Source: Macrostomum lignano
Lineage: Eukaryota
Length of the DNA: 36,457 bases
Assembly (NCBI GenBank): GCA_002269645.1
Contig: NIVC01004741.1
Span: 1-36,457, forward strand
Reading direction: 5' to 3'
The notes beneath the pieces were generated by a model. It did no database searches, was not told the DNA's origin, and was given only the letters and a program-made list of their open reading frames with translations. The translations under genes were made by a program, and so were the position numbers. Below, in pieces: positions 440-27,721 of this stretch (within the stretch, counting starts at the first letter, position 1; each line of letters opens with the position of its first letter).

Positions 440-1102
440 TCAAAATGAAATAATATCCTCATCCATCGGCAGTGGCGTATTGGAAGCTGCCTGTTGGTTT
501 GCCGCTGCCTGTTGGTGCGCCGCCATCTGTTGGTGCGCCGCCATCTGTTGGTGCGCCGCCATCTGTTGGTGCGCCGCCATCTGTTGGTGCGCCGCCATCT
601 GTTGGTGCGCCGCCATCTGTTGGTGCGCCGCCATCTGTTGGTGCGCCGCCATCTGTTGGTGCGCCGCCATCTGTTTGTGGTAGGGTTCAGATGGCCAGTT
701 GCCGCCCGCTAGTGTTGGTTGTGTTATCGCTCGTTGAATCTCTTGATATGGCGGTGGCTCATCATATCGATCTTCCCTTGGTAGTTCATTGAGGCTCGTG
801 CTCTCATCTTTCTTTGACTGATATGCTATTCGGGCATAGTTAACCGATTTTCGGCAGTTTAAATATTGCTTTAGAAGACTAAGCAGCTTATCTTCTCGAA
901 CAAAAGCGTAGAAAACATCGATGTTATCTATATTTCCCAAATTAGGAAAAACAGTCAACGGATAAAGTTTTTCAATTTTTCTTTTAATATGCTCTGTCTT
1001 GGTACGTGCGTCGTTATATCGTCTTCGCAATTTCAGAGCCGAGGGCATAATGTGAAGTAAGCAGTGACAGAGTTGTAGTTGAGTAGTTAGAGGCGCGCAC
1101 AT
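440..1102 (-). CDS. Hypothetical 220-aa protein with C-terminal (QQMAAH)n repeat
   Basis: Open ORF co-oriented with the other element A genes; PPPY motif; no recognisable family. Confidence 0.5.
   Translation of the reverse strand: MCAPLTTQLQLCHCLLHIMPSALKLRRRYNDARTKTEHIKRKIEKLYPLTVFPNLGNIDNIDVFYAFVREDKLLSLLKQYLNCRKSVNYARIAYQSKKDESTSLNELPREDRYDEPPPYQEIQRAITQPTLAGGNWPSEPYHKQMAAHQQMAAHQQMAAHQQMAAHQQMAAHQQMAAHQQMAAHQQMAAHQQMAAHQQAAANQQAASNTPLPMDEDIISF
511..672. repeat. 18-bp coding minisatellite (GTTGGTGCGCCGCCATCT) x9
   Basis: Nine perfect units read directly, plus degenerate units at ~486-510. Confidence 0.97.
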
Positions 1103-1216: not shown

Positions 1217-1632
1217 CTAAAAAATTCCTTTAACTTTAAAAGTCTTTAGCAGCCACTTGACTGCTTCGCTGGGTACTTGTTCGACTCTTTTAGCCGCATC
1301 AACTAATACTCCACTCCCTTGAGCCTTTTTCAAGTCTTCTAGTTTTTGCCGTTCAATGCTTTCTATTGTCTTATTATGCTTAGCATTGTTGGCTGTATTA
1401 ACACTTTTTGCAATCATTGTACCAACTCCAGAGGCTGCTCCGATACCCCCCAAATTGCTGGTAGTAAGCCTAATAGAGGAATTATTCCACCTTCATATTC
1501 TTTCTGTTTCTCTTGCAATTCTCGAATCTTCTCTTTAGAAAGATACTGCTTTTGTTTATTTACAGTAACATATCTTGGTTTCCCTTCTCGAACATATCGA
1601 TTGAGTCTGGCTTCAGTGTTTTTCTCGCTCAT
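1217..1632 (-). pseudogene. Polinton virion core/membrane-active protein, adenovirus pX-like; split by a 1-nt frameshift
   Basis: Joining ORFs 1414-1632 and 1217-1453 across the G6 run (C6 at 1446-1451) gives EYEGGIIPLLGLLPAI-GGIGAASGVGTMIAKSV, resembling the GG-ILPLL...AAAIGA segment of adenoviral pX. Confidence 0.55.
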
Positions 1633-1640
1633 TTTTAAGG

Positions 1641-2141
1641 TCAGAATTTCTTCAAACCATTGCCTTGTCTCAAAGACACTTGAGACTGTTCTGCTGTTCC
1701 TAGAGCCTTTTTAACAATATCTTGAATAGCCTTATTTGATTGAGAAGCTATCTGTTGCTCTTCTTCCATTCTTTTCTTTGCTTCTTTTTCTCTACGTTTC
1801 TTTTTAATATATTCCAGTTCCTCACCTGCTTTAGACATGTCACTGTATGATTTCTTCGCATCGAATATGTTCTTCGCTGTGGTAGCTGTTTTATCTATTG
1901 CATCAGCTCCACTCACAATTTTACTTCCATGATTTGATAAAAAGTTTGTGACACCACTGATCATATCACCAATTCCTTCACCCTCTTTATCAGCTAGTAG
2001 CTGTGAATCTGACGTTTCAATCTGACCTTTCGCCCGTTTGCAGTTTGTTCGGTAAGCGCTCATTTTTAGTTGAAAAATTTGCTGGTAGAAGCTGGGATTT
2101 GTAAAATGATCCAATAATTTCTTCTCCATTCTCATCTTCAA
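1641..2141 (-). CDS. Putative Polinton virion core protein (166 aa)
   Basis: KEGEG-IGDMISGVTNFLSNHG amphipathic segment after a GxG motif; basic/coiled-coil tail ending RQGNGL; lies between the integrase and the pX-like ORF. Confidence 0.5.
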   Translation of the reverse strand: MKMRMEKKLLDHFTNPSFYQQIFQLKMSAYRTNCKRAKGQIETSDSQLLADKEGEGIGDMISGVTNFLSNHGSKIVSGADAIDKTATTAKNIFDAKKSYSDMSKAGEELEYIKKKRREKEAKKRMEEEQQIASQSNKAIQDIVKKALGTAEQSQVSLRQGNGLKKF

Positions 2142-3259
2142 TAATGTAGGTTATTGGATTTGAATAAACTATTTTCTATTATAAACTATTTGTTTATCCT
2201 AAACACTTCTGAAATTTTCCAATAACTTCTTCGACCCTTTTCAAAGTGCTCCTTATATCTATAGATATGAACTTTGTCACCTACTTTGAAGTTTTGTTTC
2301 TCATTTGAATACTCAAATGAAGGCTTTGGTACTCGCTCAGGATGTTTAGATGTTTCTGAAGGAGTTATCAGAATCTCTGAATGGATTGTGTTGTTGTACT
2401 TATCAACAATAGCTAGCAATATGTGGAGTCACTTCTGGTTTCCTTGTAGATCAAATTCAAACCAGAGTTTATTTGTGAGAGTACGATTTAACCTCTCAAT
2501 CATTGTATTCTTAGACTCACCATAAATTGAGAACATCTTGTTAATATACTCCCCATTTTCATCTTTCTTTCTAATGTTGTCTTTTGAAAACGAGTATAGC
2601 TTTTACATATGCTGATTATAAAACTCCTTGCCTTCATCTACACAAAGTCTCTCTGAACGTCTTCCTGATTCCTGAAATACTTTTTGGAAAGCTTATGCAA
2701 CTTCCGCTCCCGTCTTTGTTTTTAAAGGAACTGCCCAAGCGTAACGTGTAAAACCATCTATGATAGTGAGAGCATATTTGTAACCTCTTTCAGGTGGTAG
2801 GATAATGATATCTGCATGCCAAATTGTGTCTTTTGCATAGTGAATCATTTTTCTAAACACTCTTGGCTTTCGATTTTCTTTATGCAATTTCAAAGCATCT
2901 TCATAGCTAAGACTATTGCCGTATATGGTTAGACAGTCTATACAATTGTTGGGGTTGTGAGTATGAATGCCTAATCCAAACCGAACTTTAGCTTTGATAA
3001 TACGCTTTACTAGATTTCTAATGAGTCTCTCCTTCACAGACAAGTCGCTGGTTGGAATAGCATCTAAATCAGCTATCATTTTTTCATCAGCTATATGCTT
3101 CTTTGCTAGAGCTTCCTCTGGATTTGAAGAAGTGTTTTCAGCATCTCTATAGTTTTTGTCATGATAGTAAGCAGTCCAATCGATTGGGTTAATTGGTAGA
3201 CTGTCATACCGAGGCCGGTCTGTAATTGGATTGAGTCTTTTGTCTAAATTTGTACCGGG

Positions 3260-4153
3260 CAGTCGATCCTCAATCTTTCGAAAGAGGCTGGACTTTATCT
3301 TAAGGCATCATCAGGATTGACCAGATCCTTCAGCCCCACCCCCATTAAGTCTCTGAACCTTCTCAATATCCTTGTCAACTTCGTTCGGACTTACGAGCTT
3401 GGCTGCGGATTTCCACCATGTCTTCAAGCTTGTTACCATCGAACCATAGGATCGCGGACGAAGTCCGATTGGGAACAGGAATTACCTGTGTTCCTTCAGA
3501 AGATTTCTCAACTGAAGTGGTACTTGAGGCTGTTGTTGACGTACCTGAGGTACTCGAACTTCGTTCGGACGGAGTTCCCGCAATTTGAAGGTGTTGCCAA
3601 TCACTAAGCACTTGTTTAATGTTGGTTATAATGTTTTTGTATTGATCCCCGTAAAAAATTTTAATGCAAATTCTCCTGTTACAAGGGTGATTTCATTGTG
3701 TAGTAAAATATTATTAGGTTCCTTTGTAGTTTTATTGATGCATACATAATACAACTGATAGGTGGGATAAGAATTTTTATAGTCTAATAGTTTCTGATAA
3801 TTCCTTTCACGACTTGATGAATTGTCCTTGTTATCAGAAGATTTAAGCTCTAATGCAATCTTTCGCTCAACGTGAACCAGGTCTATCTTTTTTACCTTCT
3901 CGAATATAAAATAATTTTCTGCTAATATTTCATATAGTCTGCCTAGTCTCATTTGAATAACTTTAATCTTGTGTGAAATTATTAACTCTTCTTGGAAAAG
4001 ATCATGAAGAATTTGATCATGCCCAACCTTATCATCAATTGGTTTCAGAAGGATTTTTCGAATTGTTTGCTCCATTTTTACTTTAGAAAATTTAACAAGT
4101 GCTTATTCGATGACTAGCAAGGACATTGACTTCCTCACTCAGGCCACTACGTA
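3260..4153 (-). ncRNA. Group I self-splicing intron, IC1-like, 894 nt
   Basis: Minus strand: 5' exon ends in U paired to G in P1 (CAGGU/GCCUG); P element AAAUUGCGGGAA (3575-3586); Q AAAUCCGCAGCC (3401-3412); R GGUUCAGAGACU (3348-3359); S AAGAUAAAGUCC (3290-3301); P3 CACCUUCA/UGGGGGUG; P2.1 GCUAGUCA/UGAUUGGC; last base G (3260). Removal restores the frame and the G-P-G-T motif. Confidence 0.93.
3626..4075 (-). CDS. Intron-encoded PD-(D/E)XK restriction-endonuclease-like protein, putative homing endonuclease (149 aa)
   Basis: Intact ORF with E49 (GRLYE), D65 (KIDL), E76-x-K78 (IALELKS) and a following N/S-rich segment, the layout of type II REase-like folds; enclosed by the 12-bp inverted repeat TAAGCACTTGTT (3605-3616)/AACAAGTGCTTA (4094-4105). 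Confidence 0.72.
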   Translation of the reverse strand: MEQTIRKILLKPIDDKVGHDQILHDLFQEELIISHKIKVIQMRLGRLYEILAENYFIFEKVKKIDLVHVERKIALELKSSDNKDNSSSRERNYQKLLDYKNSYPTYQLYYVCINKTTKEPNNILLHNEITLVTGEFALKFFTGINTKTL

Positions 4154-4283
4154 ACCTGCGAAAGAATAGCCTGGAATATGAAATTCGCCAGGATACTTTC
4201 CAGTGGCGAAGATGGGTGGTAGTTTTGTTATAGCTGACTGAATATCTAAGCGTTTCCTAGAAATAATGGTTTACTGAAGGCCA

Positions 4284-4388
4284 TTATATATATATATATA
4301 TATATATATGTTATATGTTTATATGTTTATGTTTATATATGTTTATATATGTATATGTTTATTTTATGTATATAAAATAAACTTGTAT

Positions 4389-4977: not shown

Positions 4978-5076
4978 AGTAGTAGTGTTATATAAGGGGC
5001 TGAGTCATCCAGCGAGCTGGCGCGCAATGCGCTTGAGCAATAAGTGTGGCGCAGCCCCTTATATAACACTACTACT
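4978..5076. repeat. Perfect 25-bp inverted repeat with (AGT)3 outer ends, Polinton-terminus-like
   Basis: AGTAGTAGTGTTATATAAGGGGCTG (4978-5002) and its exact reverse complement (5052-5076); 49-bp spacer; no TSD seen. Confidence 0.85.
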
Positions 5077-6212: not shown

Positions 6213-6759
6213 GTTTTTTCAATATAAAGAGCACAGCGGAGTAAAATGTTACATTCTCTGAGTATTTTCTCAGTATTTAACAGCGCTTGTTAGTAGTATT
6301 AGTAAATTACACGCAACCACCTACACTCGAACTGTAATACGCCTCCGTCAATTCGAGCTAACGAGCGAAACGCAACTCGCCCAAGCCGGCGTTTGATAAG
6401 GTACAAATCTCACCTTTCTTATCTTATACGACACACGAACCAACACTAGCGCTCTTCTAAAAGAAATATTGAATGCAAAATCCAATTCTTCCTTAGCCTT
6501 GGCCATTTATTTCTGCAAAGTATATTTAACTGAATTCGCCGCAAGTCCAACGCATTAAATCCCGTGCTACGTAGAGCCCGGAAGGATTTAGTAGAGGGCG
6601 GTTTAAGCTTCCTGAAGAAGACGATTGGAATGGGTAAGAAACGTAGATTGACGACTACTGATGGACCAGTTGTGGTTAAGCGGCGACAAGTCAGGAAAAA
6701 GGGTATAAGCAGAAAACACCTGTGGTAAAAAAACAGGTTGGACGTGGTCGGCGACCAGG

Positions 6760-7364
6760 ACGTGGTCTGTCGTAAGTCTATGAAGAGATAGCTGAAGGCC
6801 TTGTCACTCGTCGCGTCGTCATAAGCCTGCACCAGAAATCTACTAGCTCGGGGGTACATCTGCCGACCCAAATGTTCAACGGCGCTACGATCCCTAACGT
6901 TTCGGCTTAAACAGATATAACTCGTCGATAAACTTCTTTTTCTTGCCTCAGGATCCGCAGGGTCGAACAAATTTTGGCACAAATAAAGACAAGTCAATGG
7001 CGTATGATGAGCCAATTTGGTGAATACAGCGGTAAAAGCGCGTTGCTTTGCAACTTCACCCTGCAAATCATCAACAACGACTAAATCGTGCGGTTTGAAT
7101 CTAGCCAACAACTGATCGGGGAATCCCTGTACGAAGTGACATTCGCCACTTCCACCCAACGTCCAACATTTCGAACTCGTTTTTCCTCAGACGAATGTAA
7201 CTCTGTACCGAGACACCAAATTAGACGCCTTGGTACTACTCGAAACAGACCCAAGCGCTCCCTTACCAGTCGAAGCACCCATTCAGTCTTTCCCGAATTC
7301 GAAGGACCCGCGACGATAAACGTCGAGTCATGAGCAAATCGCAAGTCGAATGTACGCCTGTCCA
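6760..7364 (-). pseudogene. A32/FtsK-like DNA packaging ATPase (Polinton type)
   Basis: MDRRTFDLRF..Walker A GPSNSGKT..Walker B LVVVDD..FTKLAHH..LYLCQNLF..AYDDAT..FSYLFIDLRQTT; frameshift near 7160-7190; C-terminus diverges after RQTT. Confidence 0.9.
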
Positions 7365-7367
7365 TTC

Positions 7368-7787
7368 TAGGCACCCAAACGCTGTTTTACGTTCATAACG
7401 CGGGACCAGTTTTGCGGCCAAACGTTCCCCCCACTTAGTTGTAGGATCCGCAGCAATCTCTCGAGCTCCTGCTTCGAGTTGTTGATCGGCCTTTGAACGC
7501 TCTGCCACGTCCGAGTGCTTCTCGTATGCCAGGTCGTGTAAGAGACACAATTTATCGAGCCGATTCTTTCCAGTATCGCCCCGCGCCAAACGTTCTTTCA
7601 ATCTGGTCCCGGGGCCGCAGAATTGGTAACTTCCCGGCAAATGAAGCTCCCCTGGGAGATGATTTATTACCCAATTAACAATACCAAACCCCGTCTGACC
7701 TCGACGACGAGATTTCTTAGCTCGAGTCGACTTTGCTGCTGTCGAACGCACTCGCTTCTTCTTCTTCTGTCGGCCTTGTGTTCCCAT
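7368..7787 (-). pseudogene. Intronless parvovirus-type PLA2-like protein (PLA2X)
   Basis: Basic N-terminus, QTGFG, ELHLPGSYQFCGPGT, NRLDKLCLLHDLAY; frameshift before the C-terminal MNVKQRLGA*. Confidence 0.88.
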
Positions 7788-7933
7788 CCCACTTAATTGT
7801 ACCAAAAGAACCAATTGCATTTACTTATACACACAGCGGTTAAATCCACGAGCAGTATCTTGTATTAATAATCAAAGTGACAAGCCGCCACCAATTCCCA
7901 CCACTGACCGACGGGCTCCGGGCGCGAGCAGCA

Positions 7934-8413
7934 TCACATGTTAGTGCTGCCCATGTCACCCGTCTCGCGAACCGCCACCGGCTCCGGTTGTCGGTGCCAC
8001 ACCCCCGGCAGCTGGCCCTCGCAAGCTCGACCGACTTCTACCGGGGGCGTGACGCAGCGCTCCAGAATCAGTTGGGCCACGCTGGTGGCACACGGCAGAT
8101 GAACTTTCTCATGACGTGTTGTGCAGGATCACGCGGAGTTCCCCGGTATAGTCCGGGTCAACCACGCCGCCCTGCACATTGAGGTTTCGGTTGGCCCAAC
8201 TGGACTGGCTCGCTATCCGACCATAGGTGCCTGGCGGCAGCATCACCCGGAGGCCGGTGCGAATGATGGCCGTGTCAAAGGCCTCCACAGTGCGGTCTTC
8301 GCACGTGGCTAGGCGTAGCCCACCGACCCGGCCGTAGCTCGCCGAGGCATCACTGCCCCGGCATCCGTGAGCACTACGCGCAGCGGGACCGTCGTGCAAG
8401 CGTCGGGGCTCAT
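7934..8413 (-). pseudogene. dut: dUTPase
   Basis: PRRATAGSVGY, YGRIASQSS, GGVVDPDYTGELRVILHN, VAQLILER, C-terminal RETGDMGST; one frameshift (~8310-8340) and a stop at 8109. Confidence 0.9.
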
Positions 8414-8748
8414 CGTGGCTGCCGGATCATAGTTCCTCTTATGCTTAGGAGGTTTGTCATCCTCTAAAATAAGTCTAGTACTACCCTCGTAATCCTCGTC
8501 CCAATCCAAAAAACTAAGCCTAGTACTAATCCCCTGCACTGCTATCATTGGTCTAGAAAAACGAAAAAAAATACAAAAAGAAAGAAGGAAAGGCGGATTC
8601 TTGCATATACATTCGATAATTGCGCACATATATTGTGAGCAGAAAAAGCATAAACAGACAGAAAATAGAGACAGGGAGAACAAGTCAAGTCAACCGCCAA
8701 TGACCAAATGGGAGGGATGAGTAGGGATCGAGCCAGGCCATTCGAGCA

Positions 8749-9069
8749 TTACATCGAGCCATTCGTGTCGAAAAAGCTAAGCGCCTGCTTGCGCTGCTCA
8801 AGAAGATAAATCTTCTGTCGTCGCGAGGTAATCGTCCGCATCGTTACATGCTCCAAAACTCGATCCTTCAACACACTCAAAAATACATTGTGCTTCATAC
8901 CTCTTACAATCGACTTCGACACGCCCTTGCAACGCACAAGAGCCTGACAGAGGCTTTTCTTTGCATACACCATTGAATAGTTTTTCGGACGTAGAAATGC
9001 AAACTCCAACGGTGTACAACCGGAAACTTCATCTCTCCAGGCCATTAACTTCCCTTTATACTTCTTCTT
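8749..9069 (-). pseudogene. polB: Protein-primed PolB, C-terminal part
   Basis: KKKYKGKLMAWRDE..EFAFLRPKNYS..CKGV..KQALSFFD matches the Polinton PolB C-terminus and joins in frame to 23725. Confidence 0.88.
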
Positions 9070-10444: not shown

Positions 10445-11380
10445 TCTTCTTCTCTCTATCTATATATACTAAAGTTGACGCGTTGTTTGTCTGTCTGTAT
10501 GTCTGTCTGTATGTCTGTCTGTCATTTCGACAACTCCTCCTTGAATAGTGCCAACTCAGCGTTGAAACTTATATGGGAAGATTGGAAATTATCCGAGGTC
10601 GGCTATAGGCTATTTTAATTCTGAAATTTTAATTTCTAAGATCCTCAAAAAAGCAGAAAACGGCGGTCTTGACCTTTGATAATCTTAATTGTCCCCTCTT
10701 TCTGCTTGGAGCTGAAAATTTGCATGAATTTCAAGTGATTGCGCCACAACTTTTCCCTATCTCTGCAGTGTATTTTCTCTCCAGTGGGGGGATGGGGCGT
10801 TCTAAATGGCTGCCTGTGTACAATCGGACCCTGGCTCACTGGCTGACTGTATAGATAATTGCGCAATGATATGGCTACTGATAAGTTTTCCTGCCTTTCA
10901 ATGGGCAGCCCTGTGTATTTGTTGGACATTGAAATTCAATGCTTCAACTTGCAAGCAGGCAGTGAACGTACACTCGATACTTCAATGCTATAAATCAGAC
11001 AGTTTCAAACGCTAACTGTTCCTCGAGTTTTAAACTTTGAGAGGAGAAACTTATATTGCTGGAAAGATCTTGCAACGCTGAGTTCGGGGATATAAGTTGT
11101 TTGCTTTAAATATGAAAAGAAAAAGCACAGCATTTGAAAAACTATTTCCATACTTTTAACTTTCTGCAAAGATTGTACTTTAATCTGCAAAGATTGTTGG
11201 GGGGAGGGTTCAACTTCTCACTGCTGCTGTGTATTGGAGGGTCGATTTAGATTGCGCAATGTTTTTGTTAACTTTACCTGAGGCTGATACTGACTGACTG
11301 TGAAATCGGTTGCGCAATGAATTGATTCAAATAGTTCAATATTTTTATCTGTGCCTTTTAACACAAAGTTGTGCGTAGTT

Positions 11381-11420
11381 CTAACCCTAACCCTAACCCT
11401 AACCCTAACCCTAACCCTAA
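11381..11420. repeat. Telomere-like (CTAACC)~6.7
   Basis: Direct reading. Confidence 0.97.
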
Positions 11421-11839
11421 TGAATCTGGCGAGTTGAGTTGTTTGACGGAAAAAATTCGATTAAGTCAAGTTTAGCGGAGACGATTTCAATGTTTAAATT
11501 CTGACGGAGAAGATTTCTGTTTCGTGGAGAGGATTTCGATGATGTTCAGTTTCACGAAAGGATTTCGATGATGTTCAGTTTCACGAAAGGATTTCCATGG
11601 TGTTCAGTTTCACGGAGAGGATTTCGATCATGTTCAGCTTCACGGAGAGGCTTTCTGTTTCGCGGAGATAATTTATGATTGATTTCTGTTTTATGGAAAC
11701 AATTTTGATGGATTTAAGTTTCAAGGAGAGGATTTCGAAGGAGTCCAGTTTCACTGAGAGGATTTCGATGGTTTTTAGTTGCACAGACAGGATTTTTGCT
11801 TCGCGGAGAGGATCTTGATGGATTTGGCATCTTCAATCA

Positions 11840-12545
11840 GTCAGAGAAGAGAGTAAAGAGAAGACTGAAAAGAGAAGAGAGAAGAGATGCTAGAAAACAG
11901 AGTATAATTGAGTGGAGAGATTAGACATGACAGATTGGAGATGATAGGATAGAGAATAGATGAGGGATAAGAGCGTACAGAGGCAATAGAAGAGAGGGGA
12001 GAGTAGAGGAGAAAGAAAGAGTGAGATGAGGAGATGAGGGATGAGAGAGGAGGGGAGAGAGGAGACAGGAGAGAGTACAGACGAAAGACTAGGGAGAAGA
12101 TATAAATAAGGTAGTAAAGATGAGAGGAGAGAGAGGAGAGAGAAGCGAAAGGAGAAGAGAGTGAGGAGAGAGGAGAGAGATGAAAGGAGCAAGGAAAGGA
12201 GAAAAGAGAGAATGGAGAGAATAGAAAAGAGAGAAGAGAAGAGACAGGGGATAGTGAAAAGGAGGAAGAAAGATGGGAGACAAGAAAGAAAGTAGAGTGT
12301 GAGAGCGTATATGAGATATCAGAAATGAGAAGCAGATAGGAGAGAAAAGAGAAGAGAGAGAGGGTTAAGAGAGACGATAGATAAGTAAGGAGAAATGACA
12401 TATGAGAGAGGAGAGAAGAGGGAGAGATAAGAGTGAAGAGAGGAGACAGAAGACAGGAGAAGGTACAGACGAAAGACGAGGGAGAAGAGATAAATAAGGG
12501 AGCAGGGGTAGAGATGAGATGAGAGAGAGGAGAGAGGAGATATGA
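11840..12545. repeat. GA-rich low-complexity tract
   Basis: Purine-rich plus strand; produces spurious L/S-rich ORFs on the minus strand. Confidence 0.9.
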
Positions 12546-12717
12546 GAGACTTGAGAGTCTTTGAGCTATGGTCTTTGAAAGATTTTGTAAAGAATTTGGA
12601 GACGATTTGGAAGATAGGGTTAAAGACATGGAATTTCAGTTGATGGATATTTCAGGGAATAGAATTCCGGTGATGGGAGTTCTTCCCCTTTCTCCTCCGA
12701 AGGAGGAGTTCCACTCG

Positions 12718-15262
12718 TCTATCTATATATACTAAAGTTGACGCGTTGTTTGTCTGTCTGTCTGTCTGTCTGTGTGTCTGTCTGTCATTTCGACAACTCC
12801 TCCTTGAATAGTGCCAACTCAGCGTTGAAACTTATATGGGAAGATAGGAAATTATCCGAGGTCGGCTATAGGCTATTTTAATTCTGAAATTTTAATTTCT
12901 AAGATCCTCAAAAAAGCAGAAAACTGCCTTTTTGACCCCCAATAACCTTCTTTTGCCACTCTGCCTGGGGCTTCAGCCAGTTTGTAAAAATAGCCACCCC
13001 AACCTCCGCCCGCGGGCCGCTGTGTATTGAGGGGTGGTGGGTGCGCGTGTTCTGCGTTCAATGCAAATAAAACCCCCCGCGTGTTGGGGAGTTGAGTTGA
13101 ATTTAATGATTCCCCCGGAACGGGGGGGTGGGCTTGGGCTGAGTGTACATAGCTATTGTAAACAGATAGAACTGTGCCGAGATTCAATTGGTTTTATTAT
13201 CGGCCCTGTGTATTAGCTGGGCAGTGAAATTCAATGAATAAACTTGCGAGCATCTCTAGCAAGAAGTCGGGAAATCGGTAAATTTCAAACGCTAACTGTT
13301 CCTCGAGTTTTAAACTTTTAGAGGAGAATTAGAATTGAGACTTTTAGAGTTTGAGGATATAAGTTGTTTGCTTTAAATATGAAAAGAAAAAGCACAGCAT
13401 TTGAAAAACTATTTCCACACTTTTAACTTTCTGCAAAGATTGCACTCAGTTTTGCGAGACGTAATGGATAAAGTTGGGGGAGGGTTCAACTTTTCACTGC
13501 TGCTGTGTATTGGAGGGTTGATTTAGATTGCGCAATGTTTTTGTTAACTTTAACTGAGACTGATACTGACTGACTGACTGTGAAATCGGTTGCGCAATGA
13601 ATTGATTCAATTAGTTCAATATTTTTATCAGTGCCTTTTAACACGAAGCTGTGCGCAGTTCTAACCCTAACCCTAACCCTAACCCTAACCAATGAATCCG
13701 GAGAGTTGAGTTGTTTGACGGAAAAAAATTCTATTGAGTCCAGTTTAGCGGAGATGATTTCAATGTTTTATTTTTGACGGAGAGGATTTCTGTATCGTGG
13801 AGAGGATTTCGATGGTGTTCAGTTTCATGAAGAGAGGATTTCGATGATGTTCAGCTTCACGGAGAGGATTTCTGTTTCGCGGAGATAATTTATGATTGAT
13901 TTCTGTTTTATGGAGACGATTTCTGTGATTTTGATGGATTTAAGTTTCAAGGAAATGATTTCGAAGGAGTCCAGTTTCACGAAGAGGATTTCAATGGTTT
14001 TCAGTTGCACGGAAAGGATTTCTGCTTCGCGGAGAGGATCTTGATGGATTTGGCATCTTCAATCAGTCAGAGAAGAGAGTAAAGAGAAGAATGAAAAGAG
14101 AAGAGAGATGAGATGAGATGATAGAAAACAGAGTAGAAATGAGACGAGAGATTAGACATGACAGATGGCAGAGAAGAGGGGAGTAAGGCGGGAACGAAGG
14201 AGAGAGAAAAGAAGAGGAGAGAGGAGACGAGAGGGGAGATATGAGATAGCAGAGGGTGACAAGAGAGATGATAGGAAAGAGAATAGAGATGAGGGATAAG
14301 AGCGTACAGAGGTAATAGAAAAGAGGGGAGAGTAGAGGAGAAAGAAGGAGTGAGATGAGGGATGAGAGATGAGAGAGGAGGGGAGAGAGAAAAGAGGAGA
14401 AAAGAGGGGAGAAATGAGACAGGAGAGAGTAGAGACGAAAGACCAGGTAGAAGATATAAATAAGGTAGTATAGATGAGAGGAGAGAGAGGAGATAGAGAA
14501 GCGAGAGGAGAAGAGAGAGAGGAGAGAGGAAAGAGATGAAAGATCAGAGATAAGAGAGTTAGGAGAAGAAAAGTAGTGAGGAGAGGAGAGATGAGAGATG
14601 CGATGAGAAAAGAGATGAGTGAGAACATAAGAGAGAAGAGATTAGAGATTAGAGAAGAGAGGGGAGAAGATGAAAGGAGAAAGGAGAGGAGAGAAGAGAG
14701 AATGGAGAGGATAGAAAAGAGAGAAGAGAAGAGACAGGGGATAGTGGTAAGGAGGAAAGAAAGATGGGAGACAAGAAAGTAGAGTGTGAGAGCGTATATG
14801 AGATATGAGAAATGAGAAGCAGATAGGAGAGAAAAGAGAAGAGAGAGAGGGTTAAGAGAGACGATAGATAAGTAAGGAGAGATGACATATGAGAGAGGAG
14901 AGAAGAGAGGAGACAGGAGACAGAAGTGAAGAGGAGAGATGAGAGAAGAGAGGAGACAAGAGACAGGAGAGGGTACAAACGAAAGACGAGGGAGAAGAGA
15001 TAAATAAGGGAGTAGGGGTAGAGATGAGATGAGAGAGAGGAGAGAGAAGAGAGTCACGATAATAGCGAAGAGAGGAGAGAGGAGATACGAGAGACGTAAG
15101 AGTCTTTGAGCTATGGTCTTTGAAAGGTTTGTAAAGAATTTGGAGACGATTTGGAAGATAGGGTTCAAGACATGGAATTTCAGTTGATGGATATTTCAGG
15201 GAATGGAATTCCGGTGATGGGAGTTCTTCCCCTTTCTCCTCCGAAGGAGGAGTTCCACTTCG
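12718..15262 (+). mobile_element. Non-autonomous Helitron unit 3 (~2.5 kb)
   Basis: Same termini and internal modules as unit 2; GA tract ~14065-15095. Confidence 0.82.
13661..13690. repeat. Telomere-like (CTAACC)5
   Basis: Direct reading. Confidence 0.97.
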
Positions 15263-17517
15263 TACATATACTAAAGTTCACGTGTTGTTTGTCTGTCTGT
15301 CATTTCGACAACTCCTCCTTGAATAGTGCCAACTCAGCGTTGAAACTTACATGGGAAGATTGGAAATTATCCGAGGTCGGCTATAGGCTATTTTAATTCT
15401 GAAATTTTAATTTCTAAGATCCTCAAAAAGCAGAAAACTTGAATCTTGACCTTTGATAATCTTAATTGTCCCCTCTTTCTGCTTGGAGCTGAAAAATGCA
15501 TGAATTTTTTGTGATTGCGCCACAACCTTTCCCTATCTCTGTAGTGTATTTTCTTTCCAGTGGGGGGTGGGAGCGTTCTCAGTGGCTGCGTGTGTACACT
15601 TGGACCCTGGCTCACTGGCTGACTGTATAGATAATTGCGCAATGATATAGCTACTGATAAGTTTTCCTGCCTTTCAATGGGCAGCCCTGTGTATTTGTTG
15701 GACATTGAAATTCAATGCATCAACTTGCAAGCAGGCAGTGAATGTACACTCGATACTTCAATGCTATAAATCAGACAGCTTTAAACGCTAACTGTTCCTC
15801 GAGTTTTAAACTTTGATAGGAGAAACTTATATTGTTGGAAAGATCTTGCAACGCTGAGTTCGGGGATGTAAATATGAAAAGAAAAAGCACAGCATTTAAA
15901 AAACTATTTCCATACTTTTAACTTTTTGCAAAAATTGTACTCAGTTTTGCGAGACGTAATAGATAAAGTTAGGGGAGGGTTCAACTTCTCACTGCTGCTG
16001 TGTATTAGAGGGTTGATTTAGATTGCGCAATGTTTTTGTTAACTTTAACTGAGACTGATACTGACTGACTGTGAAATCGGTTGCGCAATGAATTGATTCA
16101 ATTAGTTCAATATTTTTATCAGTGCCTTTTAACACGAAGCTGTGTGTAGTTCTAACCCTAACCCTAACCCTAACCCTAGCCAATGAATCCGGAGAGTTGA
16201 GTTGTTTGACGGAAAAAAATTCGATTAAGTCCAGTTTAGCGGAGACGATTTCAATGTTTTAATTTTGACGGAGAGGATTTCTGTTTCGTGGAGATAATTT
16301 ATGATTAATTTCTGTTTAATGGAGACGATTTTAATGGATTTAAGTTTGAAGGAGAGGATTTCGAAGGAGTCCAGTTTCACGGAGAGGATTTCGATGGTTT
16401 TCATTTGCACCGACAGGATTTCTGCTTCGCGCAGAGGATTTTGATGGATTTTGCATCTTCAGTCAGTCAGAGAAGAGAGTAAAGAGAAGAGCGAAAAGAG
16501 AAGAGAAATGAGATGATAGAAAAGAGAGTAGAAATTAGAGAGGAGAGATGACAAATAGGAGAGAAGAGGGGAGTGATGCGGGAATGAAGAGGGGGACAGA
16601 ATAGAAGAGGAGAGAGGAGATGAGATGGGAGATATGAGATAGCAGAGAGGAGACAAGATGGATGAGAAGAGAGAGAAGAGAGACGGGATAGGAGCGTACA
16701 GGGGAAATAGAAGAGAAGAGAGAGTAAAGGAGAAAGAAAGAATGAGATGAAGGATGAGAGATAAGAGAGGAGGGGAGAGAGAAGAGAGGAGAAAAGAGGG
16801 GAGAAAGGAGACAGGAGAGGGTACAGACGACAGACCAGGGAGAAGATATAAATAAGGTAGTAGAAATGAGAGGAGAAAGAAGCGAAAGGAGTAGAGAGAG
16901 AGGAGAGAGATGAAAGATCAGAGATGAGAGAGTTAAGAGAGGAAAGTAGTGAGGAGAGGAGAGGAGAGATTAGAGATGCGATGAGAAGAGATGAGTGAGA
17001 ACATAAGATAGAAGAGATTAGAGATTAGAGAAGAAAGGGGAGAAGATGAAAGGAGCAACGAAGGGAGAATATAGAGATAAGATAAGTTGATAGATAAGTG
17101 AGTAGAGATGACATATGAGAGAGGAGGGAAGAGGGAGAGATAAGAGAGAAGAGAGGAGACAGGAGACAGAAGTGAAGAGGAGAGATGAGAGAAGAGAGGA
17201 GACAAGAGACAGGAGAAGGTACAGACGAAAGACGAGGGACAAGAAATAAATAAGGGAGTAGGGATAGAGATGAGATGAGAGAGAGGAGAGAGAAGAGAGA
17301 GAAGAGAGTCACGATAATAGCGAAGAGAGGAGAGAGGAGATATGAGAGACGTGAGAGTCTTTGAGCCATGGTCTTTGAAAAGTTTTGTAAAGAATTTGGA
17401 GACGATTTGGAAGATAGGGTTCAAGACATGGAATTTCAGTTGATGGATATTACAGGGAATGGAATTCCGGTGATGGGAGTTCTTCCCCTTTCTCCTCCGA
17501 AGGAGGAGTTCCACTCG
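15263..17517 (+). mobile_element. Non-autonomous Helitron unit 4 (~2.25 kb)
   Basis: Same termini and modules; GA tract ~16460-17350. Confidence 0.82.
16152..16181. repeat. Telomere-like (CTAACC)4 + CTAGCC
   Basis: Direct reading. Confidence 0.95.
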
Positions 17518-19973
17518 TATATACTAAAGTTGACGTGTTGTTTGTCTGTCTGTCTGTCTGTTTGTGTGTGTGTGTGTGTGTCATTTCGACAACTCCTCCT
17601 TGAATAGTGGCAACTCAGCGTTGAAACTTATATGGGAAGATTGGAAATTATCCGAGGTCGGCTATAGGCTATTTTAATTCTGAAATTTTAATTTCTAAGA
17701 TCCTCAAAAAAGCAGAAAACGGCGGTCTTGACCTTTGATAATCTTAATTGTCCCCTCTTTCTGCTTGGAGCTGAAAATTTGCATGAATTTCAAGTGATTG
17801 CGCCACAACTTTTCCCTATCTATGCAGTGTATTTTCTTTCCAGTGGGGGTGGGAGCGTTCTCAGTGGCTGCGTGTGTACACTTGGACCCTGGCTCACTGG
17901 CTGACTGTATAGATAATTGCGCAATGATATGGCTACTGATAAGTTTTCCTGCCTTTCAATGGGCAGTCCTGTGTATTTGTTGGACATTGAAATTCAATGC
18001 ATCAACTTGCAAGCAGGCAGTGAACGTACACTCGATACTTCAATGCTATAAATCAGACAGTTTCAAACGCTAACTGTTCCTCGAGTTTTAAACTTTGAAA
18101 GAAGAGACTTATATTGCTGGAAAGATCTTGCAACGCTGAGTTCGGGGATATAAATTGTTTGCTTTAAATATGAAAAGAAAAAGCACAGCATTTGAAAAAC
18201 TATTTCCATACTTTTAACTTTTTGCAAATATTGTACTCAGTTTTGCGAGACGAAATAGATAAAGTTGGGGGGAGGGTTCAACTTCTCACTACTGCTGTGG
18301 ATTGGAGGGTTGATTTATATTGCGCAATGTTTTTGTTAACTTTAACTGAGACTGATAATGACTGACTGTGAAATCGGTTGCGACATCAATTTGTTTCATT
18401 ATATGTGCCTTTTAATAGGCTGCCCTGTGTAATAGCCGGCCTGTGTAATGAATGAATAAACTTGCGAGCCTCTTTGGCAGGCAGTGAACGTATACTCGAT
18501 ATTTCAATGCTTTAAAACGGGAACTTTCAAACGCTAACTGCTCTTCGAGTTCTAAACTTTAAGAGAAGAGACTTATACTGCTGAAAAGATCTTGCAACGC
18601 TGAGTTCGAGGATATAAATTGTTTGCTTTAAATATAAAGACTAAAAGCACAGCATACAAAAACTATTTCCATACTTTTAGCTTTCTGCAAAGATTGTACT
18701 CATTTTTAGTTCAATGCCCCCAACACCCGGGTTCAATTTCTAACTGCCACTGCGTATTGAAAAGGGGCCGGTCTCTGTGTACTGGAGGGTTGATTTAAAT
18801 TGCGCAATCTTTTTGTTCACTTTACCTGAGACTGATACTGACTGACTTTGAAATCGGTTGCGCTATCAATTGATTCAATTGGCTCAATTTTTTATTTAAA
18901 CACGCAGCTGTGTGTAGCTCTAACCCTAACCCTAACCCTAACAGTAACCCTAACCAATGAATCCTAATATTTTATTCTTTTTGACGGAGAAAATTTCGAT
19001 TGAGTCCAGTTTTAAAGAGATAATTTCGATGGTTTTCAGTTTCACGGAGAGGATTTCTGTTTCGCGGAGAGGATTTCAATGGTTTTCAGTTTCACGGAGA
19101 GGATTTCTGCTTCGCGGAGAGGATCTTGATAGATTTGGCATCTTCAATCAGTCATAAAAGAGAGTAAAGAGAAGATCGAAAAGAGAAGAGACATGAGATG
19201 GTATAAAACAGAGTAGAAATGAGTGGATAGATTAGACATGACCGATGGAAGAGAAGAGGGGAGTAAGGCGGAAACGAAGAGGGAGAGAGAAGAGAAGAGG
19301 AGAGAGGAGATGAGAGGGGAGATATGAGATAGCAGAGGGAGACAAGAGAGATAATAGGAAAGAGAATAGATGACGGATAAGAGCGTACAGAGGAAATAGA
19401 AGAGAGGGGAGAGTAGAGGAGAAAGAAAGAGTGAGATGAGGGAAGAGATATGAGAGAGGAGATATGAGAGACGTGAGAGTCTTTGAGCTATGGTCTTTGA
19501 AAGGTTTTGTAAAGAATTTGGAGAGATGATAGGAGAGAGAATAGAGATGAGGGATAAGAGCGTACAGGGGAAATAGATGAGAGGGGAGAGTAGAGAAGAA
19601 AGAAAGAGTGAGATGAAGGATGAGAGATGAGGGAGGAGAGGGGAGAGAGAAGAGAGGAGAAAAGAGGGGAGAAATGAGACAGGAGAGAGTAGAGACGAAA
19701 GACCAGGGAGAAGATATAAATAAGGGAGTAGGGGTAGAGATGAGAGGAGAGAGAGGAGAGAGAAGAGAGTCACGATAATAGCGAATAGAAGAGAGAGGAG
19801 ATATGAGAGACGTGAGAGTCTTTGAGCTATGGTCTTTCAAAGATTTTGTAAAGAATTTGGAGACGATTTGGAAGATGGGATTCAAGTGGAGTTTCAGCTG
19901 ATGGATTTCAGGGAATGGAATTCCGGTGATGGGAGTTCTTCCCCTTTCTCCTCCGAAGGAGGAGTTCCACTCG
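17518..19973 (+). mobile_element. Non-autonomous Helitron unit 5 (~2.45 kb)
   Basis: Same termini; internal duplication (~18040-18380 vs ~18480-18880); GA tract ~19150-19810. Confidence 0.8.
18920..18955. repeat. Telomere-like (CTAACC)n, interrupted
   Basis: Direct reading. Confidence 0.93.
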
Positions 19974-22900
19974 TAAATACTAAAGTTGGTGCGATGTTTG
20001 TCTGTTTGTCTGTTTGTCCGTTTGTTGCATAACTCCTCCCAGAATACTTGCAACTCAGCGTTGAAACTTATATGGGAAAACTGAAAATTTTCCGAGGATG
20101 GCTTTAGGCTATTTTAATCTTTCATTTTCAATTTTTAAGATCCCTAAAAATGCAGAAAACGGCGGTCTTGACCTTTGATAATCTTAATTGTCCCCTCTTT
20201 CTGCTTGGAGCTGAAAATTTGCATCAATTTTAGTGATTGCGCCATAAAATTTTTCTATCTTGGCAGTGTATTTTCTCTCCAGTAGTAGGTCGCGTTCTCA
20301 GTGGCTGCGTGTGTACACTTGAACCCTGGCTCACTGACTGACTTTATAGACAATTGCGCAATGATATGGCTACTGTTCAGTTTTTTATTAACTATAGGCG
20401 CCTTTTTATTACTGCCTCTTTTTACCAGGCAGTGAACGTACACCCAAGAGTTCAATGCTTGAAATCGGGCTTTTTAAAACGCTATCTGTTCAAAAGAGAC
20501 ATATTACTGGAAAGATCTTTCAATGCTGAGTTCGTGAATATAAGTTGTTAAGCTCAGTATAAAACAACGATTCTATAGTTTTAATTCTCATTAAATTCTC
20601 ATTCTCAGTTTTTTAATACTAATTTTTTAGCAAGTTAGTTAGGGCGTCAAAGTCCAAGGGGGTTCAATTGCCGCTGTGCATTGGAGGGGGGTTGCTGTGT
20701 ATTGGCGGGGAGTGGGTGGCTGTATATTGGAAGGTTCAGATTGCGTAGCCATACTGTTAACTTCAAAAACTTTAACTGATACTGACCTACTAAGAAATCG
20801 ATTACGCCACCAATTTGTTTTATTATCGGTGCCTTTAGTCAGTCAGTCCCTTGCAGTTGTAAGACTGACTGCTCTAATTTTTTTAGCTTAAAATAATCGA
20901 TATCTTTTATCACTTTTGCTCATCAGCTGCATGTACATGTCTTACCAAATGCACATTATCATATTTATTTTTTATTGACAAAAAGCAAGTACACTTGGCC
21001 TTTACTTAATGACTCGACTTTTCAATTCAGTTCTACAAGCGTATTTCATTCCATATCATAATAAATTTTTCTCAAACCTTCCGATTTGGTCGAACAGTGC
21101 TCTTTGCTTATTTATATTTGCATTATTTATTAATTATTATATTATTGAACAATCAAAATGCCTAAGCGAGGTCGAGGATGCCTTTCCCGCTCTACCCGTG
21201 CTGCATCGGAAGCCAAAAGGCGCAGGGCGTCGGAGACACCCGAGGAGCGTGCAGCGCGCGCTGAGCGGGAGCGGCAGCGTAGGGCCGAGAGCCGTGAGGC
21301 TGAAGGTGAAGTGCAGCGTCAGCATCGGCTCGAACAGGACCGGCTGCGGACTGCCGAAAGCCGTTTCGCCGAGGACGAGCCAGTCCATCTGCATCGCCTG
21401 GAGGCGCAGAGGCAGCGCACAGCCAAAGGCCGCGAGTCTTTTAATGACGCCAGCATCGGCTTGACCACGACCCGCTGCGTGCTGCCGAAAGTCATGATTC
21501 TGAGGACGAAGTGCAGCGCCAGTGTCGTCTTGAGGCGAGTCGTATGCGCACAGCCAACAGCCGCGATGCTGAAGACGAGGTGGAACGCCAGCATCGGCTC
21601 GACCAAGACCGGCTGCGTGCTGCCGAAAGTCGTAAAGCCGAGGATGAGGCGGTCCAACTGCATCGGCTGGAGGCGCAGCGGCAGCGCCATAATCAGCATC
21701 GCGCGGCTGAGTCCGCTGACGACCGCGAACGTCGTGTACAGACACAAGCAGAGTGGCGCCGAGACAGGTAAGGGTTCTTATATTTTATTCTACTAATATT
21801 ATGTGCAGCTTCTCATTCGCTGAAACCACCAATAAACTTTATGAATGTACGACTAGATTTTATTATCCATGTATGATTTATGATTAAAATTCTCTTTTTT
21901 CACTGTCACAGACTGCTGGAGCTGGCGCACCAGCCACATGTTCTCGGTCGCATGGACCGCCAATGTCCTCACTGCAGGGCGCTACGCTGGAAGGACGAGC
22001 CAGCTAGCATTTGCTGTCATGCTGGAAAGGTGAGTTAACATTTTTATTTTGGTTTACTCAAATTGCTGCCTTATTGATGCTTTGTTATACCGGTGACTGT
22101 ATAAAATGAATATTGTATAAAACCTTAGACCCGCCAATGGATTCATAAACAATTGCATGATTTGCTGCAGCCAGTCTCCACAAAAAGCTACTTGAGTATT
22201 TTTTTCACTGACAGACCGTCCTGGAGCAGCGCCGAGACCCGCCTGATGTTCTGAAGAGGCTGCTGACTGGCGAGCATCCGTTCAGCTCACAGTTCCTGAA
22301 AGACATCAGGAAGTACAACGGCGCGCTCCATATGACCTCGCTTGGTTCCAGGCAGCGTGAGCAGCCCGGGTGGAACCCGAGCTTCATCCTCCATGGTCAG
22401 ATGCACCATCGGATCGGCAGCCTGTTGCCGGACCCGGGGGATGCGGCCAGGTTCTGCCAGGTCTTCTTTGTGGACCAAGAGCTGCAGAACAGACTGCAAT
22501 GGACGGCTGGTCTCAACGAAATTCTGCTGCAGGAGCTGCAAGCTGTTCTGCATGACTGCAACAGCTACGTGCGCAGCCTGAAGTCCGCAGTCGACTTGCT
22601 GCGCAGCGACTCGCAGCTGCAGAGAGCCAAGGTCGTCATCAACCCCGATGCCCGCCCATCTGGGGAGCATGTCCGACGCTTCAACTTGCCCGAGTGCAGT
22701 GAGGTCGGAATCCTGACGGACCTTCACGCCTTTGGCCGCCCAGACCTGTTTCTGACGATGACATGCAACCCGAAGTGGCCGGAAATTCTGGCCGAGCTGC
22801 TTCCAGGGCAGACTGCCGTCGATCGGCCGGACATCACCGCCCGGGTGTTCGAGCTGAAAAAGAAGGCCTTCCTAAACAGGCTGAAGAGTCTGTTTGGAGA

Positions 22901-23723
22901 TACTCTGGCTCGAGTCTGCTCGCTGGAGTACCAGAAGCGAGGCAAGTGTGCTTTTAAGCTTTAAACTATAGCATTATCTATTGCATCCATAATTTCGTTT
23001 ATTTCAATAAAATTAAATTTTATCCACATCCAGGTCTTCCCCACGTGCACGCGCTGCTGTGGCTGGCGAACAAGCTGAAGCCGGATCAGTACGACGCCGT
23101 CATCAGCGCGGAGATCCCGGACCCTGTCGCCGACGCCGACCTGCATCAGCTGGTGGCGGAGAACATGTTGCACGGTCCCTGTGGACAGCAGCTCAACTCT
23201 GCCGCGGCGAGCATGGAGAAAGGCAGGTGCAGCAAGCGCTACCCAAGGAAGTTCCTGGCCGCCACAAAGGTAGAGGAGGATGGCTACCCGCATTACTGCC
23301 GCAGATCCGTCGAGATGGGCGGCTTCACGGTGACGAAGCTCGCAAAGCTGCGCGGCGGTCAAAGGGTGATGTTCACCTTTGACAACCGCTGGGTGGTGCC
23401 GTACTGCCCAGCGCTGCTGCGCGAGTTTCGCTGTCACCTGAATGTCGAGATCTGCGCGACAGTTCGGGCCATCAAGTACGTGGTGAAGTACATCACCAAG
23501 GGTAGCGACATGGCAGCATACCAGATCCGCAAGGAGTCGGCGGCTGCTGCGAATGCCAGCGCTGATTCGGCCACTGAAGGACCACTGGCGATCGCCGGTC
23601 CGTCCACGTCGATTGGGACTGCTGCTGCTGTTGCTGCGACTTCCGCAAAGCGACGCAAGATCGACGAGATCGACGAATACCTACTTTCTTCCCCTTTCTC
23701 CTCCATCGGAGGAGTTGGCCTCG
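19974..23723 (+). mobile_element. Rep-bearing Helitron, internally deleted (3.75 kb)
   Basis: Helitron 5' end, spliced Rep gene, 3' hairpin 23698-23714 + TTGGCCTCG. Confidence 0.88.
21158..23690 (+). pseudogene. Helitron RepHel remnant, Rep (HUH) domain only; exons ~21158-21767, 21912-22029, 22215-22941, 23034-~23690
   Basis: Charged repeat N-terminus; GRMDRQCPHCRALRW..CCHAGK; IRKYNGALHMTSLG..HGQMHHRIGSLLP; GRPDLFLTMTCNPKW (motif 1); EYQKRG|LPHVHALLW (HUH motif 2); MLHGPCG; DNRWVVPY..HLNVE..IKYVVKYITKG (motif 3). GT-AG introns 1 and 2, GC-AG intron 3; frameshift in exon 1. Confidence 0.92.
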
Positions 23724-23724
23724 T

Positions 23725-26700: not shown

Positions 26701-27721
26701 AACAATCATACTTATCTGCTCGGTGCGGGCGTAGAAACAAAACCGCTCCCGGCATACGACCAACAGCCAGTGGAACGCGGAATGGAACGGAACGGATCGG
26801 TGCGGATTCTGTTGGACCGCCGCCCGCCTGCGCGCCCGCCGCCGCCGCCGCCGCCACGCCCGCCGCCAACACCACCGCCGCCCCGCAACCCGCTCCCCAC
26901 ACGTCCTGCTGCTGCTGCCGACGACTGCTGCTGCTCGACTGTAGTAGTAGATATTTTCGGCAAAATATGCACAGCATAACGTCGACCTTGACAACGGTGA
27001 GGAACTTCCAGTTGCTACCTCGGGACTGAAAGTTGTCTAATTTAGCTACCAGATCGTTTGTTGCCTCGCTGTACCATTGGTTGAAAACGTCCTCAGAGAG
27101 AAGAAGTACACGGTGGCCGGCGGCTGGAGCATTCGCATCAAAGGAGACCATAACGACTTTGGAATTGAAGAAGGGCGCGATTACTTCTACCTCTTCGTTG
27201 TGGGGGGATTCACCAGCAGCAGTGTCATTGGCGGGGGGATAACGAGTACGATACATTTTTACATTAGGATGTATACATGTACGGAGTAAACAGTCCGCAG
27301 ATCCGAGAGAGTGAAAAAGACGGAAAAGTGGGACTTGCAGTTGTGGAAGTAACTCGCTGGGTGGTTCGGTCTCGCCATCGTCCTCGTCCAGCAGTGGCGT
27401 GAACGTCAGAAAATTCGCCCGACCTCGGTGTGCGGACTCGGTATGTTGTACCGACCAGCCTGGTGGAGTGTCCTCTTCGATTAGCCGACGCACTGGTTCT
27501 CGAAGTAAAAGTTGGTCTGGTTGATAGCACGAGTCATTGTGCGAGTGCCCATGGAGGGCGGCTTGACTGTTGAATCTCTGCCGGCACACGGGGCATCTGA
27601 TTTGTTTCGTCGTCGACGGCGGCTGGAATGTTGTTAGCAATTGTTGGCGATGGGGTGGTTGTGATAATCGCCTAAATAGTTTGCTCGGTGGCAAAAATAA
27701 GGAAGGAATGCACAGCCTCAA
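23725..27721 (-). pseudogene. polB: Protein-primed PolB, N-terminal and central part
   Basis: C2H2-like CPVC..HGH; CFMYAV; GHYMAV..RYCPECL; Exo VYADIES; EndoVII-like DHCHLSG..RG..CMSCN; HNLRGYDG; KGVFPY; DVLLLCDVFE; RGGFS; YLDANSL*; KLLNNAVYGK; GGDTDS; FDTSNYPPSNPLY. Several frameshifts and stops. Confidence 0.95.

Follow-up and report, generated by a model that had tools for sequence, protein, structure and literature searches.

A group I intron carrying an Eco47II-like endonuclease gene in the PLA2-integrase gene of a Polinton-like element from an animal genome

The window, by which we mean the whole 36,457-nt stretch of Macrostomum lignano DNA analyzed here, carries on its minus strand a virus-like element in which a PLA2-like domain (PF08398) is fused to a retroviral-type (rve) integrase (PF00665). 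The gene for this fusion is interrupted by a group I intron, and half of the intron is an open reading frame (ORF) for an Eco47II-like endonuclease that fills the P2.1 loop and is closed by a long stem. The initial annotation had recognized the intron but took it for a bare ribozyme; it overlooked the ORF at 4075-3626, the PLA2-integrase fusion and the decay of the window copy, which has a frameshift in exon 1, another near the 3' end of the nuclease ORF, and stops plus a frameshift in the integrase part. The features of the locus, with the evidence for each in parentheses, are as follows.

5055-5076, minus strand: left end of the element, AGTAGTAG terminus, one arm of a 34-nt hairpin
4154-4284, minus strand: exon 1 of the PLA2-integrase gene (its last codon is the Gly of the PLA2 loop; the window copy has a frameshift)
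4158-4154, minus strand: end of exon 1, CAGGU
3260-4153, minus strand: group I intron, 894 nt (Rfam RF00028, gap-0 intron-less alleles, covariation)
4140-4158, minus strand: P1 helix, with U-G at the 5' splice site (also formed in the predicted fold)
4144-4140, minus strand: internal guide GCCUG
4094-4136, minus strand: P2 and the 5' arm of the extended P2.1 stem (predicted fold, string positions)
4136-4119, minus strand: P2
4118-4111 with 3603-3596, minus strand: strands of P2.1
3626-4075, minus strand: Eco47II-like PD-(D/E)xK endonuclease ORF, 149 codons (PF09553, catalytic motif, fold)
3596-3616, minus strand: 3' arm of the P2.1 stem closing the ORF loop (predicted fold, string positions)
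3260-3593, minus strand: catalytic core P3-P9, P9.0 and terminal G (RF00028, covariation)
3593-3586 with 3344-3337, minus strand: strands of P3
3583-3577 with 3409-3403, minus strand: strands of P4
3424-3528, minus strand: P5abc extension with GAAA loop and A-rich bulge (intron-core alignment)
3354-3347 with 3295-3290, minus strand: strands of P7
3336-3303, minus strand: P8
3287-3268, minus strand: P9
3260, minus strand: terminal G of the intron
2017-3259, minus strand: exon 2, remaining PLA2-like domain and rve integrase (PF08398, PF00665; stops and a frameshift)

A range of data supports the identity of the intron. The group I model RF00028, with which the initial annotation had proposed a search, matches window positions 3673-3269 at 85.6 bits (E 1.2e-20; cut-off 50) and is the sole Rfam family to match the window; the strings, helices and boundaries read earlier were all found in place on the minus strand, 4153-3260. 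An alignment of 17 distinct intron cores keeps the P3-P7 pseudoknot core and P4-P6, with the G-C pair of the guanosine site present in 15 of them, and its paired cells amount to 97.7%, against 93.5% in shuffled and 35 to 50% in slid controls. Two-sided changes fall in 11 of the 67 pairs (3 of 5 in P7), most of which separate the two intron families described below, so that they represent few independent events. Exon CAGGU and guide GGCCUG are unchanged in 10 of 10 aligned copies from both families, and a terminal G follows P9.0 in the window copy and in family 1. Folding energies reveal no excess stability over shuffles, with z scores of −0.97 for the whole intron and −1.16 for the core. The build is IC1-like, as had been proposed, with P2.1, P5abc, an A-rich bulge, a GAAA loop and a tetraloop receptor; the names and consensus of P5abc, the bulge and the receptor follow the Tetrahymena model, and P9.1 and P9.2 are absent, so another IC subgroup would be possible. 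A 3' splice site 9 nt upstream was considered and rejected, since it would fall inside the P9 stem and disagree with the junction that the empty alleles define. Two structural details deserve record: the receptor helix (window 3390-3397 and 3362-3368) is changed here on both strands, from C-G to G-U, and hairpin insertions of ~30 nt are variably present in the peripheral loops of P5, P5a and P6b, as they are at the end of the free-standing nuclease gene, sparing the core helices (window 3525-3555 and 3440-3470; loci L035, L065, L099, L100 and L102).

Intron-less alleles in the same genome define the junction exactly. Ten of the 38 distinct family-1 loci lack the intron, their exons meeting at the predicted junction with 0 nt between them, and one of them is a single open PLA2-integrase frame of 452 residues reading YSFTGPGT. 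The earlier prediction that excision of 894 nt rebuilds the PLA2 loop is therefore realized in natural alleles, and the survey for insertions at the G/PGT site that had been suggested finds filled and empty alleles side by side within this one genome. Together with the model match and the covariation, this confirms at the level of sequence that the 894-nt element is a genuine group I intron in the PLA2 loop of a protein gene, for which splicing is predicted. Exon 2 is open for at least 400 codons in 11 of 27 intron copies.

The gene callers behind public databases have cut PLA2-integrase proteins at this intron: 6 of 42 truncated proteins start exactly at the Pro after the junction, and the tails of 19 of 173 database proteins, in 7 clusters, translate the intron core, so the arrangement also occurs outside this genome. 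Four pairs of database entries (P0003/P0204, P0161/P0211, P0165/P0215 and P0171/P0208) combine a nuclease with a truncated PLA2-integrase on contigs of equal size (14,527, 65,222, 18,491 and 10,272, respectively), which suggests the same arrangement in outside assemblies.

Filled and empty alleles are intermingled. When the distal integrase is placed on a tree of 36 rows, from which L015 and L020 were omitted because of their long branches, the empty alleles are rejected as one clade (p-AU 6.6e-73) and at least 3 changes between the states are forced; in one intron/empty pair the identity falls from 100 to 98.0 to 93.6% from far to near the site. This mosaic and gradient are the expected trace of homing with co-conversion; ordinary recombination could leave the same trace, and neither gives a direction. 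A pattern search found 20 empty sites genome-wide, all of them GGC-CCA and never GGT-CC, and exon 1 of intron-bearing copies ends GCA GGT; the uniform GGC-CCA fits a narrower specificity with resistance as well as it fits co-conversion. Seven of the 10 empty loci (L043-L049) retain a stub of the nuclease start (72% identity over 46-58 nt) ~570-650 nt upstream of the empty site, and L043 also retains an earlier exon 1 and the first part of the intron, so these empty loci look like elements whose intron-bearing allele was disrupted and replaced.

The element itself belongs, by its gene content, with the integrating DNA viruses, as the initial annotation had held. A sister family-1 copy, 97.5% identical to window positions 1226-1830, continues into a double jelly-roll capsid gene (PF21738, E 1.7e-13) and an A32 packaging ATPase (PF04665, E 5.5e-6). 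DNA polymerase B (PF03175) lies 10-11 kb from several family-2 genes; it was not located for family 1, and the contig of the window ends before that distance. The combination of integrase, capsid and packaging ATPase supports assignment of the element to the Polintons/Mavericks. Its integration in an animal genome is supported as well: the 764-Mb genome yields 86 Wnt matches, which make the host an animal. An ORF of the element at 440-1102 (minus strand) encodes about nine tandem HQQMAA repeats and has no Pfam match.

It is very improbable, in our judgment, that these elements belong to a protist or a giant virus whose DNA was assembled together with that of the animal. Close relatives do occur in environmental assemblies of unknown host, which counts in favor of such contamination. 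The intron, however, has 41 DNA matches in the genome, 28 of them full-length at 77-100% identity on contigs of up to hundreds of kilobases, the AGTAGTAG terminus at which the window element ends (5076) recurs with different host flanks at 7 other loci, and two contigs hold a Wnt exon together with an intron copy. The full-length copies and differing flanks mean that the locus is not an assembly chimera, a concern the initial annotation had itself raised. At least half of the sampled words occur, moreover, in each of 8 sequencing runs from 4 studies of one organism, one run possibly being the source; among the 24 runs listed as containing sampled words, none is an RNA run.

Elsewhere in the window, a second PLA2-like gene, intron-less, lies at 7263-7820 on the minus strand (PF08398, E 4e-8) within another, GC-richer element (6400-9050) in which the sequence GGNCC occurs 10 times against 10.5 expected and is not depleted; the same interval contains broken remnants that are ATPase-, dUTPase- and polymerase-like by their motifs. 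A third, degraded Polinton-like element (23700-30100, minus strand) retains pieces of PF03175, a stretch resembling endonuclease VII, and one ORF that combines TBP-like with nucleoside-kinase-like parts. ORF fragments at 21100-23750 resemble a Helitron Rep/helicase by motif; the one ORF scanned has no Pfam match. Strongly purine-skewed tandem satellite blocks with repeated spacers occupy 10600-20500.

The endonuclease is a more unusual part of this intron than the ribozyme itself. Its only Pfam match is PF09553 (E 9e-5) at 22.6 bits, under the cut-off of 25.9, which the homologues P0006, P0014 and P0018 exceed. All 10 of the 10 homologues aligned share D65, E76 and K78. Structure prediction (pLDDT 83) gives a bare catalytic domain of ~145 residues with no added DNA-binding module, nearest to EcoO109I (Foldseek E 1.1e-3; VIA Z 6.9, rmsd 4.9 over 142), whose site is RGGNCCY, and to McrC (Z 7.2); these scores are modest, both Z values lying under the tool's bar of 8. 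Searching PDB sequences with the nuclease profile gave nothing meaningful and matched no described homing enzyme. The broad PD-(D/E)xK class that includes this nuclease is named among homing enzymes in the available text of one review (PMC3984707). Among the 23 ORF copies counted (4 loci were skipped, and one lacks exon 1), 13 are open for at least 200 codons and reach the ribozyme core, into which most copies other than that of the window run on. Selection has maintained the nuclease: diverged members of a single family compare at a dN/dS of 0.16-0.27, and comparisons across the two families, in which dS is saturated, give 0.07-0.14. The window nuclease, at 1.16-2.34 against its nearest relatives, has values that fit decay (the L064 row, out of frame, was excluded).

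The nuclease has relatives in giant-virus contigs, at ~30% identity; a C5 methylase adjoins them tail to tail in each of the 5 neighborhoods tested, and no intron was found at the 12 of 20 giant-virus nuclease loci that were scanned. Judging by its family and by the base composition described below, the intron nuclease probably descends from Eco47II-like enzymes of giant-virus restriction-modification pairs. No methylase accompanies the element in this genome, where the 12 PF00145 matches fall on 9 contigs, none of them shared with the listed elements.

A genome search with the nuclease returned 105 matches, among them a group at ~63% identity that we call family 2. In all 5 family-2 loci examined (L099-L103), the same position of the PLA2 domain is occupied by a group I intron (Rfam 53-63 bits); in the 3 seen whole it is 300-303 nt long and lacks an ORF, and the nuclease stands free just upstream of exon 1. 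This intron has three compensatory changes in P7 and an altered J8/7, and the genome-wide RF00028 search missed every copy of it. A pattern search for its ends found 67 introns, 64 ending in A and 3 in G; a pattern search for empty family-2 sites matched none. A-ending group I introns have a precedent in Coxiella. A nuclease lies within 1.5 kb of 18 of the 67. In a tree of 34 nucleases, free-standing copies fall inside a starred clade of 11, of which 8 are intron-borne, and a single clade of intron-borne nucleases is rejected (p-AU 0.003); the gene has thus moved into or out of the intron more than once, and the tree does not give the older state. Descent of family 1 from family 2 was considered and is not shown by this tree.

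These counts bear on the proposal, to which we give little credence, that the intron is real but its nuclease a passenger or a splicing helper, with the patchy distribution arising from ordinary recombination and precise loss. Forty-nine of the 67 family-2 introns have no adjacent nuclease, 10 of the 23 family-1 ORFs are broken, and the mosaic flanks carry no direction, all of which a passenger would allow. It would not be expected, however, to keep its catalytic residues invariant in every aligned homologue, nor to show a dN/dS of ~0.2 in free-standing copies as well, where intron structure cannot hold it.

The base composition of the element offers an indirect indication of what the nuclease recognizes. 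Homologues of Eco47II are predicted, "without certainty," to cut GGNCC, according to the available text of PMC10305163. This sequence is missing from both families: by expectation, 9.3 kb of family 1 should contain 9.2 sites and 10.7 kb of family 2 should contain 9.1, yet each has 0. None of 300 simulations was as low in either case, and GGNCC ranks first (lowest) of 256 spaced 4-mers in each. When the terminal region is added, family 1 has 2 sites against 11.5 expected, and both lie in a stretch that is missing from two other copies viewed. The controls are mildly low too, with observed/expected ratios of 0.61 for giant-virus loci with a methylase, 0.72 for the rest of the window, 0.59 for another Polinton-like element and 0.64 for host flanks, with ranks of 2-15 of 256, in a control set that includes no AT-rich nuclease-less Polinton. 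In 24 of the 27 intron copies, no GGNCC occurs anywhere from exon 1 through the intron and across 1.4 kb of exon 2. Were the nuclease only a passenger, the purge of the very site predicted for its family would be a coincidence. The composition points to a short nuclease site rather than a long one.

Any Gly codon followed by a Pro codon creates GGNCC, and in the PLA2 loop it is just such a pair of codons that the intron separates, so that the site is broken in the DNA of every filled allele. All 10 empty copies have GGNCC at the junction, and none of the 20 empty sites has a nuclease match on its own contig: nuclease and intact site are mutually exclusive in this genome. The proteins tell a similar story. 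Gly-Pro occurs 0 times against 6.2 expected in 11 ORFs of the element; among 120 PLA2-integrase proteins from outside this genome, it is kept in 70 of the 78 that span the loop, whereas other Gly-Pro pairs number 8 against 90, and in 16 near representatives (<60% identity) it is, outside the loop, the rarest dipeptide (1 against 13, rank 1 of 263). The Gly-Pro GGNCC is apparently the one site of this enzyme family that the element cannot mutate away. In 7 of the 78 outside proteins (P0179, P0184, P0190, P0197, P0201, P0202 and P0209) the loop Pro is replaced by Ala, Thr or Leu, which would be another route to the loss of GGNCC.

The reading that we favor, with slightly more belief than doubt, is that this Polinton lineage has, in the intron and its endonuclease, a unit for restriction and homing that works without a methylase. 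The PLA2-integrase gene is interrupted precisely where the genetic code forces GGNCC, and the nuclease, of giant-virus Eco47II-like origin, would cut GGNCC or a site built on it, as its family and the composition of the element suggest. Self-protection would require no methylase: GGNCC has been almost entirely lost elsewhere, and the forced site is split in DNA and would be restored only in RNA, by splicing. During replication of the virus, the nuclease would cut co-infecting intron-less relatives at the junction site, and repair from the intron-bearing genome would copy the intron with its flanks, so that homing would be a by-product. The same enzyme could also attack helper-virus or host DNA. 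Chromosomal copies, such as the decayed one in the window, would be silent or decaying passengers. Among the points against this reading, 3 of the 27 intron copies carry GGNCC, and a 5-base cutter made in the nucleus of a living cell would shred host DNA. The host might be spared if expression were confined to lytic growth or to the factory of a helper virus, which is a guess on our part.

The main competitor, which we regard as unlikely though far from negligible, is an ordinary mobile intron. The nuclease would then have turned into a homing enzyme of the usual kind, whose long target surrounds the junction, and the purge would have an outside cause, such as the restriction-modification system of a giant virus, parasitized now or formerly, that was also the source of the gene; the intron would shield the Gly-Pro site from the foreign enzyme. 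Gly-Pro depletion does extend across the wider PLA2-integrase family, mostly with an intact loop, the methylase-paired relatives do reside in giant-virus loci, and one junction variant is common to all 20 empty alleles. In the nuclease tree, moreover, a long branch separates the starred clade of the 23 nearer nucleases from 7 giant-virus restriction-modification enzymes, so that nuclease specificity may have changed. Restriction by giant viruses has been proposed as a pressure on Polinton-like viruses in the available text of PMC12220804. On its own, however, this scenario leaves the mutual exclusion of nuclease and intact site unexplained, and a domain of ~145 residues with no extra DNA-binding module is small for a long target, which oligomers could nevertheless recognize.

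Several known systems can be compared with the intron and its nuclease. IC1 introns of nuclear rDNA, of the Tetrahymena type, have P2.1, P5abc, an A-rich bulge, a GAAA loop and an 11-nt receptor; the intron described here differs in its virus-like protein gene, in having a short P9 only, and in a PD-(D/E)xK nuclease instead of a His-Cys box enzyme. The type II restriction-modification systems of the Eco47II family (PF09553) resemble it in sequence family, catalytic motif, fold and depletion of the predicted GGNCC site, but the element lacks a methylase and keeps the gene in or beside a ribozyme, and its GGNCC is nearly absent (0 of ~9) where the Eco47II-type restriction-modification side is only mildly reduced (51 of 84). 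In animals, group I introns are known from mitochondria of early-branching lineages and, putatively, shark rDNA spacers, by the available text of PMC8393795.

The initial annotation knew of no such introns in Polintons. The available text of PMC12220804, however, already reports RF00028 introns in endogenous Polinton-like elements of the protists Paulinella, Desmodesmus and Rhodomonas, likewise in protein genes; those of Rhodomonas measure 309-376 bp and lie in a short unannotated gene, with no endonuclease assigned there, and the terms Eco47II and PF09553 occur 0 times in two supplement files of that paper. Unlike those cases, as far as the available text describes them, the present one combines an animal host, a PLA2-integrase gene, an intron-borne restriction-type nuclease, and filled and empty alleles. 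Animal Mavericks and adintoviruses (PMC8502044, PMC8097293) resemble the element, in the available parts of these papers, in integrase, capsid, packaging ATPase, PLA2-like domain and AG-repeat terminus, and differ in that PLA2 is here fused to the integrase. Intact vertebrate Mavericks are described as intronless in the available text of PMC8097293, that of PMC8502044 mentions no such intron, and the word "endonuclease" occurs 0 times in the texts of both. A nematode Polinton preprint, in its available portion, cites introns only as a possible source of HNH domains. Neither a group I intron in an animal Maverick nor an Eco47II-like intron nuclease is reported in the full-text literature searched, with subscription papers outside it. 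Related introns were likewise not found in viral contigs, where a P5 pattern gave 0 matches, protein queries gave none and a 3'-end pattern gave 16 loci with no Rfam match; a metagenome scan for related intron loci gave 3 distant ones, none with an Rfam match.

Family 2, in 18 of its 67 introns, has the layout of collaborative homing, in which a free-standing endonuclease and an ORF-less intron share a common target, as the available texts of PMC3984707 and PMC11296320 describe for phages; family 1 of this genome has the composite form there, at an identical position. The phage cases involve other nuclease families, going by these texts, and here the tree gives no direction: since free-standing nucleases nest among intron-borne ones, escape from the intron is as possible as invasion. 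A functional parallel is the intron endonuclease gp210 of phage PhiPA3, used against a co-infecting virus according to the available text of bioRxiv 10.1101/2023.09.30.560319. That is a homing-type enzyme of a bacterial virus with demonstrated activity, whereas the activity considered here is predicted from sequence.

The position of the intron and its nuclease gene suggests a trick of self-protection and spreading that the literature searched does not describe for elements of this type. With somewhat more reserve than we attach to the mechanism itself, and a shade short of even confidence, we propose as new an animal Polinton that practices restriction without a methylase through a giant-virus-derived GGNCC cutter, protected by loss of the site and by a ribozyme that splits the Gly-Pro site; the coexistence of four states in one genome (empty, intron alone, intron with a free nuclease, intron with an internal nuclease); a thriving A-ending family; and group I introns of active type in protein genes on animal chromosomes.

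A practical consequence is that gene callers cut integrase genes at the intron. There are ~95 intron copies (28 plus 67) in protein genes of virus-like elements on animal chromosomes, so splicing in an animal cell is directly testable from RNA data, and the strictness of the terminal-G rule can be examined in the A-ending family. A restriction-type enzyme in a group I intron offers a concrete route from restriction enzyme to homing endonuclease, and the purge of the site predicts the target of the nuclease in advance. If the intron does serve as an immunity that replaces the methylase, it would represent a new design for distinguishing self from non-self among eukaryotic viruses.
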